Virus genome (UHGV): UHGV-0310098
Length of the DNA: 37,829 nucleotides
Direction: 5' to 3' (one strand)
Origin: a virus
Shown here: positions 31,953-36,782 of the stretch, one piece after another
Layout of the letters: the number at the start of each line of letters is the position of its first letter
Numbering within the stretch: position 1 is the stretch's first letter
Program-made: the position numbers and the translations under genes
Notes under the pieces: generated by a model
Database searches by the model: none
What the model saw: only the letters and a program-made list of their open reading frames with translations
What the model was told of the DNA's origin: nothing

Positions 31953-32846
31953 TTATTTTTCGGATAATTTTTTCTGTTCTCGTTCTATTTGTTTAATACT
32001 TTTTGCCGGAGTAGGTAAATCTTCAGGCATAGTACCTCCTAAGCGAGAAATGGTATCACGTATTTCCTTTCCAACATTATAGTGAGTTTGATTCGCAGCG
32101 GATTTTCCTTGAATCTTTTCACGACGTAATTTTGCTTCAGTCTGAGTAGCGCGGAAAAGGTTAGCGGCTAATTCCTCGTATCCCATATGATCTAAGATTT
32201 TTTCGCTATTTTTGAGTCCTTTATGTTGATGAATATCTTTGGCAGTCATACCACCATATAGACCTTGATATCCATGATTCTGAAAGATAGCATAATCCAG
32301 AGAACTTTCGACACCGGCATTCTTGGCAGCGTCCACTAACATTTTATTATGTTCAGCCATTTCGTACCGGATTGCAAGACGCTTCTGATCGTCACTAAGA
32401 GTATCAAAGTTATCAATAAGCTCTTGTTGTCTGGTTTTCACTGCAAAGTAGGTTTGACCAAGTGCAATTACTTTTTTTCTAGAATCACCATTCTGTACAA
32501 TCAAATAGCATGCGTAGCGGGAAAGTTTATAATCATCAATAATGCGTTCGCCGCCATTAGGCATAGGTGATGATTTGCCAACATTGGCAAAATGTTCAGA
32601 TACAGCATTTCCACTGTTTTCACAGGCTGTTTTCGCACGAACGATTACTTCCTCAAACCTGCGCCATTGGCTATATTCAAGTGCATTTTGCATTTCTCTG
32701 GCATACCAAAACTCTTGACCATATTTATTGATGTGTTTAATAGACTCAAACAAAGATTCTGTATAACTATTTTGCTCTTCTTCTGTCAAGGCTTTATTGA
32801 GAACTCGGTCATGTATTTCATTTAATTTATCGTCAAAATCATTCAT
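31953..32846 (-). CDS. dinD: DNA-damage-inducible protein D (DinD)-like protein
   Basis: Recalled near-identity of blocks to E. coli DinD: LSRYACYLIVQNGD, GQTYFA.KTRQQEL, DYAIFQNHGYQGLYGG, ILDHMG.EELAANLFRATQTE, LGGTMPEDLPTP. Confidence 0.6.
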   Translation of the reverse strand: MNDFDDKLNEIHDRVLNKALTEEEQNSYTESLFESIKHINKYGQEFWYAREMQNALEYSQWRRFEEVIVRAKTACENSGNAVSEHFANVGKSSPMPNGGERIIDDYKLSRYACYLIVQNGDSRKKVIALGQTYFAVKTRQQELIDNFDTLSDDQKRLAIRYEMAEHNKMLVDAAKNAGVESSLDYAIFQNHGYQGLYGGMTAKDIHQHKGLKNSEKILDHMGYEELAANLFRATQTEAKLRREKIQGKSAANQTHYNVGKEIRDTISRLGGTMPEDLPTPAKSIKQIEREQKKLSEK

Positions 32847-32879: not shown

Positions 32880-32915
32880 CCGTCCCTGTTGGCGCAGGGG
32901 CGGTATTTTATTTTT
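32880..32915 (+). terminator. intrinsic terminator oriented for + strand transcription between two - strand genes
   Basis: 9-bp stem CCGTCCCTG/CAGGGGCGG (one G-U pair), loop TTGGCG, followed by TATTTTATTTTT on the + strand only. Confidence 0.4.
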
Positions 32916-33366
32916 AAATTACAATCATTCCATTATCATCGGCCTTTTTGGTTAACGCTATAATAAATTCAATGAATGCTATGAATGAAGGAATGAAAGT
33001 CCAACAGAATAGAAAATAAACAATGCCTGTACCTATTTTTCTGGCATAAAATTTATGAACACCAATTCCGCCAAGAAAGAATGCTAATATGCAGTAAACG
33101 ACTTTGTTAACAGCTTTTCCATGAATATAAGTCACTTGCTGTGGTAGTGAGTTTGTATTTTGTACATTAATGTTAATTCCGCTATTTGTAGATTCTGTTG
33201 CCGGGATAACTTTAGTTACCAGAGTTCGATTCTCCGTTTTGAATATCTCCACTTCATCTCCTATTTGAGGGGAGAATTGTAAATCGCAAAGTCTTACTTC
33301 GTCAATACCTCCATCATTAGTGCCAATTAATACAATTCCATCTTCAATTTTAATAATCTTAGACAT
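32914..33366 (-). CDS. TM2-domain membrane protein
   Basis: C-terminal GGIGVHKFYARKIGTGIVYFLFCWTFIP is the TM2-domain signature. ATG at 33366 after GAGGAAGAGAGGA. Confidence 0.55.
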   Translation of the reverse strand: MSKIIKIEDGIVLIGTNDGGIDEVRLCDLQFSPQIGDEVEIFKTENRTLVTKVIPATESTNSGININVQNTNSLPQQVTYIHGKAVNKVVYCILAFFLGGIGVHKFYARKIGTGIVYFLFCWTFIPSFIAFIEFIIALTKKADDNGMIVI

Positions 33367-33421
33367 GACTTTCCTCTCTTCCTCTGTACTTTTCCACAAC
33401 TCTATATAAACGCCGAAGCGG

Positions 33422-33883
33422 TTATATCATTTCCATAACTGCTAAATTTGGAATAAAATAAATAACATAGTTATCTACAGTGATATACTCGCCATATTTT
33501 CCTTTGTAGCAGTCAATAGCTTCCTGCAGATATTCTTCTGTGACATGTAGATGTTCTGCAACTTCATATCGATTCTGGCATCCAGCATGAAAAGCGGATA
33601 TGATACCACGTAACCCGATCATTCGGTTATATCCGCGTAATCGACCTTTTTGTTCTTGCTTTAGATTTTCAATATTCATTTGGTCAATGATATTTCCAAC
33701 AGCAGTGAAATGATGTCCCATTTCTTCTGCGAGTACACACGCTTTTTCTGTTGATGTTCTTAACCTATCAGATATTGCAATTCTATTTCTGAATATTCGT
33801 CCATCACTCCCAGACAGAGGCTTCTCACGGACTACGAGTCCGCTATTTTTCGCCTCTTCTAAAAGTTCCTCATAAATTGTCAT
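33422..33883 (-). CDS. ImmA/IrrE-family zinc metallopeptidase
   Basis: HEXXH (AEEMGHHFT). ATG at 33883 four nt after the repressor stop, GGGAG RBS. Classic ImmR-ImmA pairing. Confidence 0.8.
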   Translation of the reverse strand: MTIYEELLEEAKNSGLVVREKPLSGSDGRIFRNRIAISDRLRTSTEKACVLAEEMGHHFTAVGNIIDQMNIENLKQEQKGRLRGYNRMIGLRGIISAFHAGCQNRYEVAEHLHVTEEYLQEAIDCYKGKYGEYITVDNYVIYFIPNLAVMEMI

Positions 33884-33887
33884 CGTA

Positions 33888-34379
33888 TCACTCCCATTCA
33901 GAGTCATCCATCATGATGTCATCATCATGTTTTCTCATTTCATTTGTTACTTTAATATCTGTACGCTCATGAGCTGCCATTACTGACAAATCATCATCCA
34001 TTTGCTGAATGGATAACAGCTGTTCGATATAATTGTCTGCCTTTTTTCTGTTTACTTCAACTAATTTTAGATATTTTTTGAAATGATTCTTTTCCGTTGA
34101 AGAAAATGCACTGATGTTATCAATTATATTTTCAATACTATCGTTTACAAATACGTTTTCGATGCCTTTATCGCTAGAACCATCCCATCCCATCAAATCA
34201 GCAGGAGTGGTTTCTAGTACGTTGGCTAACGGCTCGAGTACTGTAATTGGCAAATCTTTGATATCATCTTTTTCATATCTATATATCGTTGCGCGATTTT
34301 TTCCAAGTTTTAAAGCAACTTCATCAACGCTTAAACCTAAGTAGAGTCTTCTGTTTTTAATTCTTTGTCCTATCGTCAT
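33888..34379 (-). CDS. XRE-family repressor (CI/ImmR-like)
   Basis: N-terminal HTH IGQRIKNRRLYLGLSVDEVALKLGKNRATIYRYE plus C-terminal domain. ATG at 34379 after GGTGGTG. Divergent from cro. Confidence 0.8.
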   Translation of the reverse strand: MTIGQRIKNRRLYLGLSVDEVALKLGKNRATIYRYEKDDIKDLPITVLEPLANVLETTPADLMGWDGSSDKGIENVFVNDSIENIIDNISAFSSTEKNHFKKYLKLVEVNRKKADNYIEQLLSIQQMDDDLSVMAAHERTDIKVTNEMRKHDDDIMMDDSEWE

Positions 34380-34402
34380 TTTGTTCACCACCTTATATAC
34401 GT

Positions 34403-34431
34403 ATTATAATATATTATTCGCAAATACGCAA
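34403..34431 (-). promoter_or_regulatory. repressor promoter (TTGCGT, 17 nt, TATAAT on - strand)
   Basis: -10 at 34403-34408 and -35 at 34426-34431. Operator copy TCGCAAATACGCA lies in the spacer. Confidence 0.5.
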
Positions 34432-34532
34432 CTGCTTTTGTTCGAAAAACAAAAAAATCGCATAAAATGCAAAAACAGTATTGACTTTTAAGACAAGGCA
34501 TTGTAATATACAATTAGTCGCATGAAATGCGA
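34418..34532. promoter_or_regulatory. three operator-like sites: O-a 34418-34430 (TCGCAAATACGCA), O-b 34458-34471 (TCGCATAAAATGCA), O-c 34518-34532 (TCGCATGAAATGCGA, perfect palindrome)
   Basis: Consensus TCGCAT-N3-ATGCGA inverted repeat. Positioned over the - strand promoter, between the promoters, and over the +1 of the cro promoter. Confidence 0.6.
34481..34509 (+). promoter_or_regulatory. cro (lytic) promoter TTGACT, 17 nt, TG-n-TAATAT
   Basis: -35 at 34481-34486, extended -10 at 34502-34509. AAAGGAG RBS at 34538-34544. Confidence 0.6.
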
Positions 34533-34552
34533 AAAAGAAAGGAGATGATGGA

Positions 34553-34771
34553 GTGGTAAATGTAAACAAACTCAGAGCGAAAATGGTCGAGATCGGCATA
34601 AATGCTGAAAGTATGTCGAAAAAGATCGGAATCGACAGGTCTACATTCTACAGAAAGTTATCGGCGGATGGTCAAACATTTACGATAGGTGAAGCTGATG
34701 TTATTTCTAAAGAGTTAAATCTGAACAGGAACGAAGTGAATAGCATTTTTTTTAGTCAATACGTCGCATGA
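34553..34771 (+). CDS. cro: Cro-like HTH regulator (GTG start)
   Basis: 72 aa. HTH MSKKIGIDRSTFYRKL. Divergent from the repressor. GTG eight nt after AAAGGAG. Confidence 0.65.
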   Translation: MVNVNKLRAKMVEIGINAESMSKKIGIDRSTFYRKLSADGQTFTIGEADVISKELNLNRNEVNSIFFSQYVA

Positions 34772-34778
34772 AATGCGA
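34764..34778. promoter_or_regulatory. fourth operator copy (perfect TCGCATGAAATGCGA) over the cro stop codon, upstream of the antirepressor gene
   Basis: Identical 15-mer to O-c. Confidence 0.55.
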
Positions 34779-34810
34779 AAATGAAATGTTAAAAACAGAA
34801 AGGAGATTAA

Positions 34811-35587
34811 ATGAATAATTTAACAGTATTCGAACAAAACGGTCAGTTACTCACCGACAGTAGAGAAGTAGCAATGATGGTAGGAAAAGACCATGCAAAA
34901 CTCTTAAGAGATATCAAAGGATATGTCAAACATCTTACTGAAGCCAATTTTGGATTGAGTGAATATTTCATTGAATCAGAGTACAAAGACAGTACCGGAA
35001 GAACACTTCCATGTTACCTCTGCACAAAGAAAGGATGCGACATGATCGCCAACAAAATGACCGGAAAGAAAGGTGTCATTTTCACAGCTACATATATTGA
35101 AGCATTCGAGAAGATGAAAGATTTCATCGAAAAGGGAACACAGTACGTTGGCATTCCATTAAAAGAACAGGTGGAATCACTGGAAGTGGTAGCAAGCATG
35201 TTAAGAATGAACGATGCAAGCAAGTTGCTGATGCTGAAAGGGTTCTATGATTCTTACCATATTCCGACAGGATTCTTACCGAATTATGAGTTCAACGGCA
35301 ATAGGGAAATGAAGTCACTCACAGCACTACTGAAAGAAAATAATCTCGGAATCAGTGCAGTGCAGTTCAATAAGAAGCTTCTATCTGCCGGAATCTTGGA
35401 AGAAAAGGAACGCAAGTCCAGTAAGGGAATGGTGAAGAAGTTCAAATCACTGACGGAGAAAGGTTTGAGATACGGTGAAAATGCAGTCAGTCCTCATAAT
35501 CAGAAAGAAGTGCAGCCGTTGTATTACAGTGACACGTTTAATGAACTGTTTGATATGGTGATGACTGCTGACTTATCGGAATGGTAG
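34811..35587 (+). CDS. Rha-family phage regulatory protein / antirepressor
   Basis: N-terminus MNNLTVFEQNGQLLTDSREVAMMVGKDHAKLLRDIKGYV is the Phage_pRha signature. AAAGGAG RBS. Confidence 0.7.
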   Translation: MNNLTVFEQNGQLLTDSREVAMMVGKDHAKLLRDIKGYVKHLTEANFGLSEYFIESEYKDSTGRTLPCYLCTKKGCDMIANKMTGKKGVIFTATYIEAFEKMKDFIEKGTQYVGIPLKEQVESLEVVASMLRMNDASKLLMLKGFYDSYHIPTGFLPNYEFNGNREMKSLTALLKENNLGISAVQFNKKLLSAGILEEKERKSSKGMVKKFKSLTEKGLRYGENAVSPHNQKEVQPLYYSDTFNELFDMVMTADLSEW

Positions 35588-35619
35588 AGGGCAGAGTAGT
35601 AGGAAATGTGGTGATAAAA

Positions 35620-35826
35620 ATGGGAGCTACAAAGAGTTTAGCAAGGTATGTGCAAGAGAACTCAGTCAATCTTTCGGCAATGTCAAGAGAAACTGGTATT
35701 CCGTACATGGCGTTGTATGACAGCCTTGCAAATAAAAAAAGAGCTCGTCTGCTATCGTTTGATGAAGCACTTGTTATATGCAGATTTCTTGGAGTAAACC
35801 CGATGGATTTTGCGGAGGAAAAGTGA
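35620..35826 (+). CDS. small HTH (XRE-like) protein
   Basis: ATG at 35620 after GGTGA. The track ORF from 35581 overlaps the Rha gene. Motif LSAMSRETGIPYMALYDSL. Confidence 0.45.
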   Translation: MGATKSLARYVQENSVNLSAMSRETGIPYMALYDSLANKKRARLLSFDEALVICRFLGVNPMDFAEEK

Positions 35827-35829
35827 AAA

Positions 35830-36008
35830 ATGAAGATAGGCGTAGATACAGAAAACAGAGAAGAATATTTATTAAAAATTCTAAAAGAAGATATTCCGGT
35901 TAAGGAGATGGAAGAGCGTATTTTTAAAGAAATTGGAGAAAGACCTATTATAGATATGAACTGTGGGATGGAACCAGGAGTTTCAGGAAAGCCAGAATCT
36001 ACTTTATA
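35830..36008 (+). CDS. hypothetical 59-aa protein
   Basis: ATG four nt after the previous stop. Its 3' end overlaps the stop of the convergent - strand gene by 10 nt. Confidence 0.3.
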
Positions 36009-36754
36009 GATTCTGACAAACCGAAAATATTTGAAATTTCGATTAATGCGCTACGACATTCTGCAGCGGAAATGGATATCCATTCCAGTAAAGCATCCGA
36101 CAAAGAACTTGTATCACTTATATTGCAGAGAAGTGGAACAGCACTCCAAGTATTCGGATGCGATTGAAAAATAGGAAGCAATCGGTTAGCTATATACGAA
36201 TTCATATCTCGCAGATATGGATCAGAATCTAATTTTTTTGCAAGCTGTGTTTTTGGTGTTTTACAAAGCTGCGATATTTCAAATGGAATTGCTTTTTGCA
36301 CATCATTTTCAACATAAGTTTTAAAACAAGGATAGTACAATTGTCCGTCTGCAGTCATTAGGTTAATGGCGGTATTTTGCCAATATTCGGAAAGTTTTGG
36401 TAAAAAATAGTATGACGAAAGTTCACAAATGGACTCTTCAAGCCATCGTAAATTCTGTTGTACTTTTCCATGAATGACTGTGTGACACATTTCATGAGCA
36501 AGCTGATATGCAAGTCGTGACCACGAGGATGGATTTGAGTTCAAGATAATCAAATCTGACTCTTTAAAACAAGCGGGGCATTCCCGTTCCTTCTGAATAG
36601 TTATTGTGGTTGAAACGCTTTGTATAGGGAGAACTTCGTTCATTACTCGAAGAAGCGTATCTATTACAAGCAACATATTTTCATCTGCTGTATCCGATTT
36701 ACCGCAATTGAAATGAATTTGAGGAAAAGAATTAATAGAAATAAGCTTTCCCAT
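35999..36754 (-). CDS. HExxH-motif protein (putative zinc-dependent peptidase fold) encoded antisense to the early operon
   Basis: 251 aa with YQLAHEMCHTVIHG. ATG at 36754 eight nt after GGAGG. Own promoter at 36789-36817. AT-rich. Confidence 0.55.
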   Translation of the reverse strand: MGKLISINSFPQIHFNCGKSDTADENMLLVIDTLLRVMNEVLPIQSVSTTITIQKERECPACFKESDLIILNSNPSSWSRLAYQLAHEMCHTVIHGKVQQNLRWLEESICELSSYYFLPKLSEYWQNTAINLMTADGQLYYPCFKTYVENDVQKAIPFEISQLCKTPKTQLAKKLDSDPYLRDMNSYIANRLLPIFQSHPNTWSAVPLLCNISDTSSLSDALLEWISISAAECRSALIEISNIFGLSESIK

Positions 36755-36782
36755 TTTAAAAACCTCCACATTAAATGATTAT

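Follow-up and report, generated by a model that had tools for sequence, protein, structure and literature searches.

How a temperate gut phage arranges its decision between lysogeny and lysis, and why one copy of an apparent repressor operator should lie over the codon that ends the first lytic gene, immediately before a putative antirepressor gene of the Rha family, are the questions raised by positions 34,380 to 34,810 of the UHGV virus genome UHGV-0310098 (37,829 nucleotides, in the following called the window). A first-pass annotation had read this region as a divergent lysis-lysogeny switch with an XRE-family repressor, which was borne out by the open reading frames (ORFs), the Pfam assignments and the promoters, and had proposed that the distal operator copy gates the antirepressor. 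From the sequence comparisons presented here we consider it likely that a temperate siphophage has its immunity cassette in this region, and that the cassette is built on the plan of Lactococcus phage TP901-1 and Staphylococcus phage phi13 and works by the mechanism proposed at the end of this text. The sites, their positions and conservation, their co-variation with the repressor's N-terminal domain, the boundaries of the module and the families of the encoded proteins were established directly.

Divergent promoters and related palindromes in the window

Two promoters stand back to back in the region, with the repressor gene as the first gene on one side and a small helix-turn-helix (HTH) gene coding for 72 aa on the other. 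The rightward lytic promoter PL (34481..34509, plus strand), composed of TTGACT, a 17-nt spacer and TAATAT (34504-34509), was found by the promoter scan with 9 of 12 positions matching. The leftward repressor promoter PR (34403..34431, minus strand), with the -35 box TTGCGT (34431-34426), a 17-nt spacer and the -10 box TATAAT (34408-34403), was read from the sequence, and it is missing from the automatic scan because its -35 hexamer fits just three of six positions. Both are conserved in 12 diverged loci, PL in its TTGAC and -10 blocks and PR in its -10 and -35 blocks.

The exact 15-mer TCGCATGAAATGCGA (TCGCAT-GAA-ATGCGA) occurs at two places only, 34518-34532 and 34764-34778, at an expectation of 0.045 perfect-arm sites by chance in Markov simulations of the whole window. 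Together with TCGCATAAAATGCAA at 34458-34472, which has two mismatches to the 15-mer, one of them within an arm, this gives two exact copies and one two-mismatch copy inside 320 bp. Following the OR/OL/OD layout as defined in PMC7250872, the copy at 34458..34472 corresponds to OR, located between the two -35 boxes and 8 nt upstream of TTGACT (34481-34486), with its position, and half-sites that match the repressor, kept in relatives. The perfect copy at 34518..34532 corresponds to OL and covers approximately +2 to +16 of PL, and the second perfect copy at 34764..34778 corresponds to the distal operator OD, its center falling on the final base of the TGA stop codon (34769-34771) that closes the small HTH gene; it is 246 bp from OL and 33 nt upstream of the ATG of the Rha gene (34811). 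Sequence reading and the promoter scan thus confirm where the earlier annotation had placed the sites, namely in the spacer of the repressor promoter, between the promoters, at the start of the lytic promoter and over the stop codon. Its count of four copies of one 15-bp palindrome stands for two identical copies and one near copy, and the fourth, TCGCAAATACGCAA at 34418-34431, is a distinct element of 14 bp, with a spacer one base shorter and two arm mismatches. Sites of this quality are indistinguishable from chance within the window (29 found versus 27.6 expected), and the element is counted as real solely because it is conserved in relatives.

The likeness between OL and OD exceeds the palindrome itself, as 27 of 30 positions are identical between 34511-34540 and 34757-34786 (CAAT.A.GTCGCATGAAATGCGAAAA.GAAA); these shared flanks may aid binding or may reflect a past duplication. 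The exact 15-mer was found in 36 viral contigs, four of which have two copies and are close relatives or other loci sharing the operator.

Conservation of the sites and co-variation with the repressor

Relatives were gathered both via the repressor and via the 72-aa protein. The latter search, for which a five-sequence alignment worked as the genome scan profile, all seven cro-like sequences being too diverse, yielded 49 loci (from Lachnospiraceae, Dorea, Megasphaera, Peptoniphilus, Sedimentibacter, the Streptococcus mitis group, Gemella and Paenibacillus) and 80 viral contigs. Site statistics were calculated over 76 distinct related loci (L062-L188) at a score threshold of at least 9/10.

OL and OD both reach this threshold in 73 of the 76 loci, so that the expected conservation of the sites in related phages was found, and their spacer classes agree in 73 out of 73 cases, 38 having five nucleotides (N5) and 35 having four (N4). 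In 71 of these 73 loci, the start of OD is 208-212 nt away from that of the first lytic gene. In the window, the 15-mer of OL is seen again where the 72-aa gene ends, matching at 15/15 positions, a score that 0 of 1057 control windows reach, and most loci show 13-15/15, far better than control windows.

The sequence of the sites follows the DNA-binding domain of the repressor. Repressors with the recognition-helix motif KNRAT go with TGCGA half-sites, and in the 10 loci with KSRAT and the one with KGRAT the half-site is TGAGA at OL (11/11), OR (11/11) and OD (9/11). A natural domain swap is provided by the loci L011 (2501-2989) and L013 (2501-2998), which in comparison to window positions 33888-34379 share the ImmA-like partner and have over 90% identity in the repressor C-terminal domain, combined with another N-terminal domain, and here GTGTCT-N5-AGACAC replaces the operators at all three positions. 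As the sites change along with the DNA-binding domain of the repressor and keep their positions, the three palindromes OR, OL and OD are best read as operators of the XRE repressor, and the earlier assignment to this repressor gains support from co-variation in the 76 loci. Residue 28 of the repressor (window numbering, directly before R-A-T) tracks a single operator base, with Asn for TGCGA and Ser or Gly, following Lys, for TGAGA, which gives a candidate specificity rule.

That the palindromes are instead RNA hairpins, serving as terminator or stabilizer, or arise incidentally from the conserved codons for the C-terminus of the 72-aa protein, is highly improbable. OL and OD both lie on the PL transcript with a 6-bp stem each, and the left arm of OD encodes Val-Ala-stop, as this explanation would have it. 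However, an intrinsic terminator has a GC-rich stem and a T-run, and the hairpin is weak (-5.8 kcal/mol, z-scores of -1.4 and -0.55) and followed by an A-run (AAAATGAAA); together with the terminator scan, which predicts no terminator at OD, this excludes the RNA explanation. Moreover, OR lies upstream of the -35 box of PL, hence off the transcript that carries OL and OD, and still has the motif, and changes in the repressor helix are accompanied by changes in the right arm of OD, which is non-coding. Although the palindrome is centered on the stop codon in most loci of the set examined for stop-codon distance, the spacing between OD and the gene start is retained even where the stop codon is 12-27 nt away (L011, +12; L013, -27; L100, -24.5).

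The distal operator and the Rha gene

The Rha-family gene (34811..35587, plus strand; Pfam Phage_pRha, E 2.1e-25) is probably transcribed jointly with the first lytic gene from PL. The first-pass annotation had proposed that the palindrome upstream of it is a dedicated control of the antirepressor, either as the operator of a separate promoter or as a specific roadblock. The position and identity of the site were correct, and several points favor a dedicated role: the short distance of 33 nt to the Rha start codon, the presence of a Bro-N, Rha or AntA type gene at this place in about 31% of related loci, and the fact that bound repressor would hinder read-through into the antirepressor gene anyway. 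However, the stretch from 34533 to 34811 contains no promoter according to the promoter scan. The only candidate seen by eye at OD, with a -35 box ATGAAA and an extended -10 box TGTTAAAAA, is not listed by the scan and was rejected because its start would fall inside the Shine-Dalgarno sequence.

The genes that follow OD argue in the same direction. Among 52 loci, the next gene encodes a Bro-N protein in six, pRha in five, AntA in five and HTH_17 in five, and replication or small unknown proteins in the rest, so that the antirepressor-like types (Bro-N, Rha, AntA) account for approximately 16 of 52; OD stands at an equal offset whether an excisionase-like HTH gene, a replication gene or a gene for a small unknown protein comes next.

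The mosaic structure of the phage separates the two elements further. The window is related in mosaic fashion to temperate siphophages of Ruminococcus (Mediterraneibacter) gnavus, and its homology to these phages ends at about 33431 on the left and restarts at about 34799 on the right. The swapped cassette (33431..34798), comprising the ImmA-like gene, the repressor gene, the promoters, the operators, the gene of the 72-aa protein and OD, is therefore exactly the stretch bounded by the ImmA-like gene and the distal operator. Since homology resumes at about 34799, the Rha gene, whose identity to its R. gnavus phage counterparts is 88-94%, is part of the adjacent mosaic module, outside the immunity cassette. 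At this place the R. gnavus phages (L001 and L003) have another cassette with a 114-aa repressor and three TTCGA-N5-TCGAA operators, all in the divergent region and with the distal site absent, and the same Rha gene directly follows a different cro gene without an operator.

Because OD is present whatever gene comes next and lies inside the recombination breakpoints, it does not specifically gate Rha, and touches it only because Rha is the next gene of the lytic operon. Dedicated antirepressor control is therefore improbable, and OD is an intrinsic part of the switch, the counterpart of the OD sites of TP901-1 and phi13 (PMC7250872, PMC8516035).

The repressor and its ImmA/IrrE-family partner

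The longest ORF of the repressor gene (33888..34391, minus strand) begins with GTG at 34391, and the likely start is the ATG at 34379 behind AAGGTGGTG, giving a protein of 163 aa. Its N-terminal domain is an XRE HTH domain (Pfam HTH_3, E 3e-8) that is conserved across 22 loci. Pfam detected no S24 autocleavage domain, which sets the protein apart from the LexA/lambda-CI-type class. For the C-terminal domain no solved structure gave a match, also with a full-length repressor profile, and a search of solved structures with the single repressor sequence returned generic HTH matches only. A profile of the 22 N-terminal domains found the generic XRE proteins 9iaq, SinR, P22 C2 and ImmR and no TP901-1 CI at E <= 0.01. 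The top match of this profile among solved structures, PDB 9iaq (E 1.6e-9), comes from an entry concerned with arbitrium-controlled small antirepressors; it is a repressor-like HTH protein and may be a further precedent for the neutralization of such repressors by small proteins.

Adjoining the repressor gene in the same orientation, with a 20-nt overlap, is an ImmA/IrrE-family (COG2856) gene (33422..33907, minus strand, 161 aa). Its product lies just inside the Pfam family Peptidase_M78 (23.8 bits at a cut-off of 22). An AlphaFold (AF2) model with a pLDDT of 88.9 has the IrrE/PprI structures 3dte, 3dti and 8slm as top PDB folds (Foldseek probability 1.0, E 1.8e-3), and homologues are named 'ImmA/IrrE family metallo-endopeptidase' by NCBI. 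In place of the HExxH motif, residues 61-65 read EEMGH (EEMGHH); EExxH is shared by 116 of the 120 closest homologues, E61, H65 and E85 are invariant, and the streptococcal partners have HELGH. With EEMGH replacing HEXXH, proteolysis by the partner is not assured. The earlier description of the system as a repressor paired with an ImmA-type protease, as opposed to an autocleaving repressor, therefore holds for the lack of S24 and for the overlapping gene of ImmA/IrrE fold, and the protease label is weakened. In related loci, the same kind of N-terminal domain, MOR-like gene and operators are coupled either to an M78 neighbor (10 of 30) or to an S24 domain within the repressor (16 of 33).

A MOR-like protein and an element over the repressor promoter

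The first lytic gene (34553..34771, plus strand; 72 aa, Pfam HTH_26) had been labeled cro. A profile of seven cro-like sequences, however, found TP901-1 MOR (PDB 6to6/6tri) with E 9e-18; without the intermediate sequence MOR was still the top match (E 2e-4), and hhalign gave a probability of 94.9%. Of the structures compared with the AF2 model (pLDDT 87.8), 6tri_B scored highest, with a TM-score of 0.77 over 67 columns. We therefore replace the cro label and regard the 72-aa protein as a remote homologue of TP901-1 MOR, belonging to a family of 852 clusters at E <= 1e-10. In switches of the TP901-1 type, MOR is an antirepressor that attaches to the N-terminal domain of CI and works with it at OM sites on either side of OR. 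TP901-1-type OM motifs (TCAACAAAA-like) beside OR were not recognizable, only A-rich flanks. In comparison to TP901-1 the window has the extra conserved 14-bp element over the -35 box of PR.

This element (34418..34431), TCGCA-AATA-CGCAA in the window and TCGCA-N4-TGCAA as family consensus, covers the -35 hexamer of PR and 8 nt of the spacer and is the best conserved intergenic block in the 12 diverged loci, reaching at least 9/10 against the consensus in 74 of 76 loci. The right arm also serves as the -35 box of PR. The left arm falls into the spacer, a part that a promoter should leave unconstrained. The spacer of the element is always 4 nt, including all 38 loci with 5-nt operator spacers, and the sequence is the same in all 11 loci with TCTCA/TGAGA operators. 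A constant sequence and N4 spacing in spite of the operator change mark the element as distinct from the 15-bp operator, and a factor that is conserved as well probably binds it. Such constancy is seen in the recognition helix of the MOR-like protein, which stays [ST]T[FL]YRK as the repressor operators switch to TCTCA/TGAGA, and the two may be linked.

A switch of the lambda type, with the 72-aa protein as a true Cro competing for OR, OL and OD and the element at PR as the weakest repressor site, autoregulatory in the manner of OR3, would fit an HTH protein with a conserved recognition helix, the resemblance of the element to the operator half-sites (TCGCA and TGCAA), its single-base difference from the operators in streptococcal N4-operator loci and the remoteness of the MOR homology. 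Nevertheless we hold it to be unlikely, because the constant helix does not track the operators, the element remains N4 in every N5-operator locus, and the retained TCGCA/TGCAA would be a poor site for the repressors of the 11 TGAGA loci. A weak autoregulatory repressor site over PR is possible, especially in the N4 lineages.

A further reading is, in our estimation, rather doubtful. The element would be a dedicated, family-wide site of the MOR-like protein and not a repressor operator, the MOR homologue a true DNA-binding shut-off factor of PR, and the EExxH partner a factor that inactivates the repressor without proteolysis. If this were true, the MOR-like protein would keep its own invariant site, leaving the specificity of the repressor to diversify freely at OR, OL and OD in a very large family of Bacillota phage switches.

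Comparison with known switches

The features by which TP901-1-type switches are recognized, namely divergent promoters, the three-site layout (at 34458, 34518 and 34764) and a MOR homologue, although a remote one, are all present in the window. In TP901-1 CI/MOR (PMC7250872, PMC4941734, PMC11149083) the promoters are likewise back to back, and the three related palindromic repressor sites occupy the gap between them, the PL start and, some 250 bp off, the far end of the lytic gene that comes first. This gene specifies an HTH protein of the MOR type, about 72 aa long and ending in ...FF..., and the repressor is devoid of an autocleavage domain. The half-sites differ, AGTTCAYR in TP901-1 versus TCGCA-N5-TGCGA in the window. 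So do the repressors, since the window protein is not specifically related in its N-terminal domain, is unrelated in its C-terminal domain and has an ImmA/IrrE-family partner.

Several observations weigh against a switch of this type. The repressor's N-terminal domain is not detectably nearer to TP901-1 CI than to other XRE proteins. In the model proposed for TP901-1, the DNA loops round a hexameric CI wheel (PMC4941734). Looping needs oligomers beyond the dimer, and the window repressor's C-terminal domain has no known relative; resembling no solved structure in sequence, it lacks a recognizable helical CTD1 hook or CTD2 hexamerization domain. The single 72-aa sequence, which returns generic HTH matches only, and a narrow profile of 45 close homologues both miss MOR among solved structures, and the Foldseek E value of the 72-aa model is weak (1.4e-2), owing to the generic nature of the XRE fold. 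The distance between OL and OD varies from 240 to 258 bp without a preferred helical phase in the 76-locus set, which speaks neither for nor against a rigid loop. Finally, the Val-Ala-stop encoded by the left half of OD is a conserved C-terminus, so that only the right half is free of coding constraint; the co-variation of this right arm with the repressor helix excludes a pure coding artefact.

Phage phi13 (PMC8516035) shares with the window the OR/OL/OD arrangement and the MOR homologue. Its OL and OD are high-affinity consensus sites and its OR is weaker; in the window OL and OD are perfect and OR has two mismatches. In contrast to the window repressor, the CI of phi13 possesses an S24 domain that is lambda-like and autocleaving.

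Among cultured phages, Clostridium perfringens phage phi3626 (AY082070; 65.5% DNA identity) has the cassette closest to that of the window; in it, ORF23 encodes an M78 protein, ORF24 a CI-like protein and ORF25 a 72-aa Cro-like protein ending in IFFSNYVA. The same four elements as in the window can be recognized, TCGCT-tata-TGCAA, TTGCG-aaaaa-TGCGA, TCGCA-tttta-TGCGA and, over the stop codon, TCGCA-taaaa-TGCGA. The phi3626 repressor is longer (240 aa), and the record marks a 'putative' CI and Cro and no operators; the searchable library yielded no study of phi3626 operators.

An XRE gene followed by a gene of COG2856 fold is also the organization of ImmA/ImmR (ICEBs1), IrrE/DdrO (Deinococcus) and Rir/Crh (Streptococcus thermophilus TP-J34). 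Such pairs work in two modes, with cleavage of the repressor for ImmA/ImmR and IrrE/DdrO or, as reported for Rir/Crh, without it (PMC6868357). Pairs of the ImmA/ImmR type are marked by a repressor that is cut site-specifically when DNA is damaged. As in these pairs, the C-terminal domain of window-type repressors is conserved together with the partner, and the N-terminal domain is exchangeable. In the window subfamily, unlike these pairs, Glu takes the place of the first zinc-binding His of HEXXH. The partner could thus cleave the repressor, as ImmA and IrrE do, or only block its oligomerization, as reported for Rir.

With lambda OR/OL and CI/Cro, finally, the window shares a divergent switch and, as proposed here, graded operator affinities, long-range operator cooperativity and shut-off of the repressor promoter through a site that overlies it. 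It differs in lacking tripartite operators, in a distal site that is a single operator inside the lytic operon, in a small lytic protein that is MOR-like and does not track the repressor operators, and in the lack of a domain for RecA-stimulated autocleavage.

Genes adjacent to the cassette

Between the integrase gene and the ImmA-like gene lie the genes of a Bro-N domain protein (31953-32846, minus strand) and of a TM2-domain membrane protein (32914-33399, minus strand). Both are located on the lysogeny strand and may represent lysogen-expressed cargo or exclusion functions. On the other side, directly past the Rha gene, a second small HTH_26 protein is encoded (35581-35826, plus strand), whose similarity to the MOR-like protein reaches an hhalign probability of only 61% (35620-35826). 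A convergent gene (35999-36769, minus strand) encodes a 256-aa protein with a canonical HEMCH motif and a Peptidase_M78 score of 17.3 bits, below the cut-off. These two may form a second pair of XRE and metallopeptidase proteins in the early region.

Proposed mechanism and significance

In the lysogen, dimers of the XRE repressor expressed from PR would bind the three related palindromes, the weaker OR and the perfect OL and OD. Occupancy of OL would block PL, and OR and OD would add cooperativity, most likely by DNA looping via repressor oligomers; bound OD could also obstruct transcripts that have escaped. As a result, the MOR-like gene, the Rha gene and all downstream genes would be off. 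Once made, the MOR-like protein would commit the switch to lysis by turning off repressor synthesis, which it may achieve by binding the repressor, by acting at the element over the -35 box and spacer of PR, or by both routes. Induction would proceed via the ImmA/IrrE-family protein, predicted to inactivate the repressor through its conserved C-terminal domain, by cleavage or, considering its EExxH motif, possibly by non-proteolytic binding.

The OR/OL/OD arrangement is already known, and the window is a well-formed but ordinary example that leaves the understanding of phage switches unchanged; noticing its distal site is useful. The layout provides a ready guide for annotating immunity cassettes in prophages of gut Lachnospiraceae, clostridia and streptococci. 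Beyond this, the natural variants found among the relatives, KNRAT with TGCGA versus KSRAT or KGRAT with TGAGA, N4 versus N5 spacers, and exchanged N-terminal domains on a constant C-terminal domain, represent testable rules of repressor specificity and candidate orthogonal repressor-operator pairs for anaerobes.

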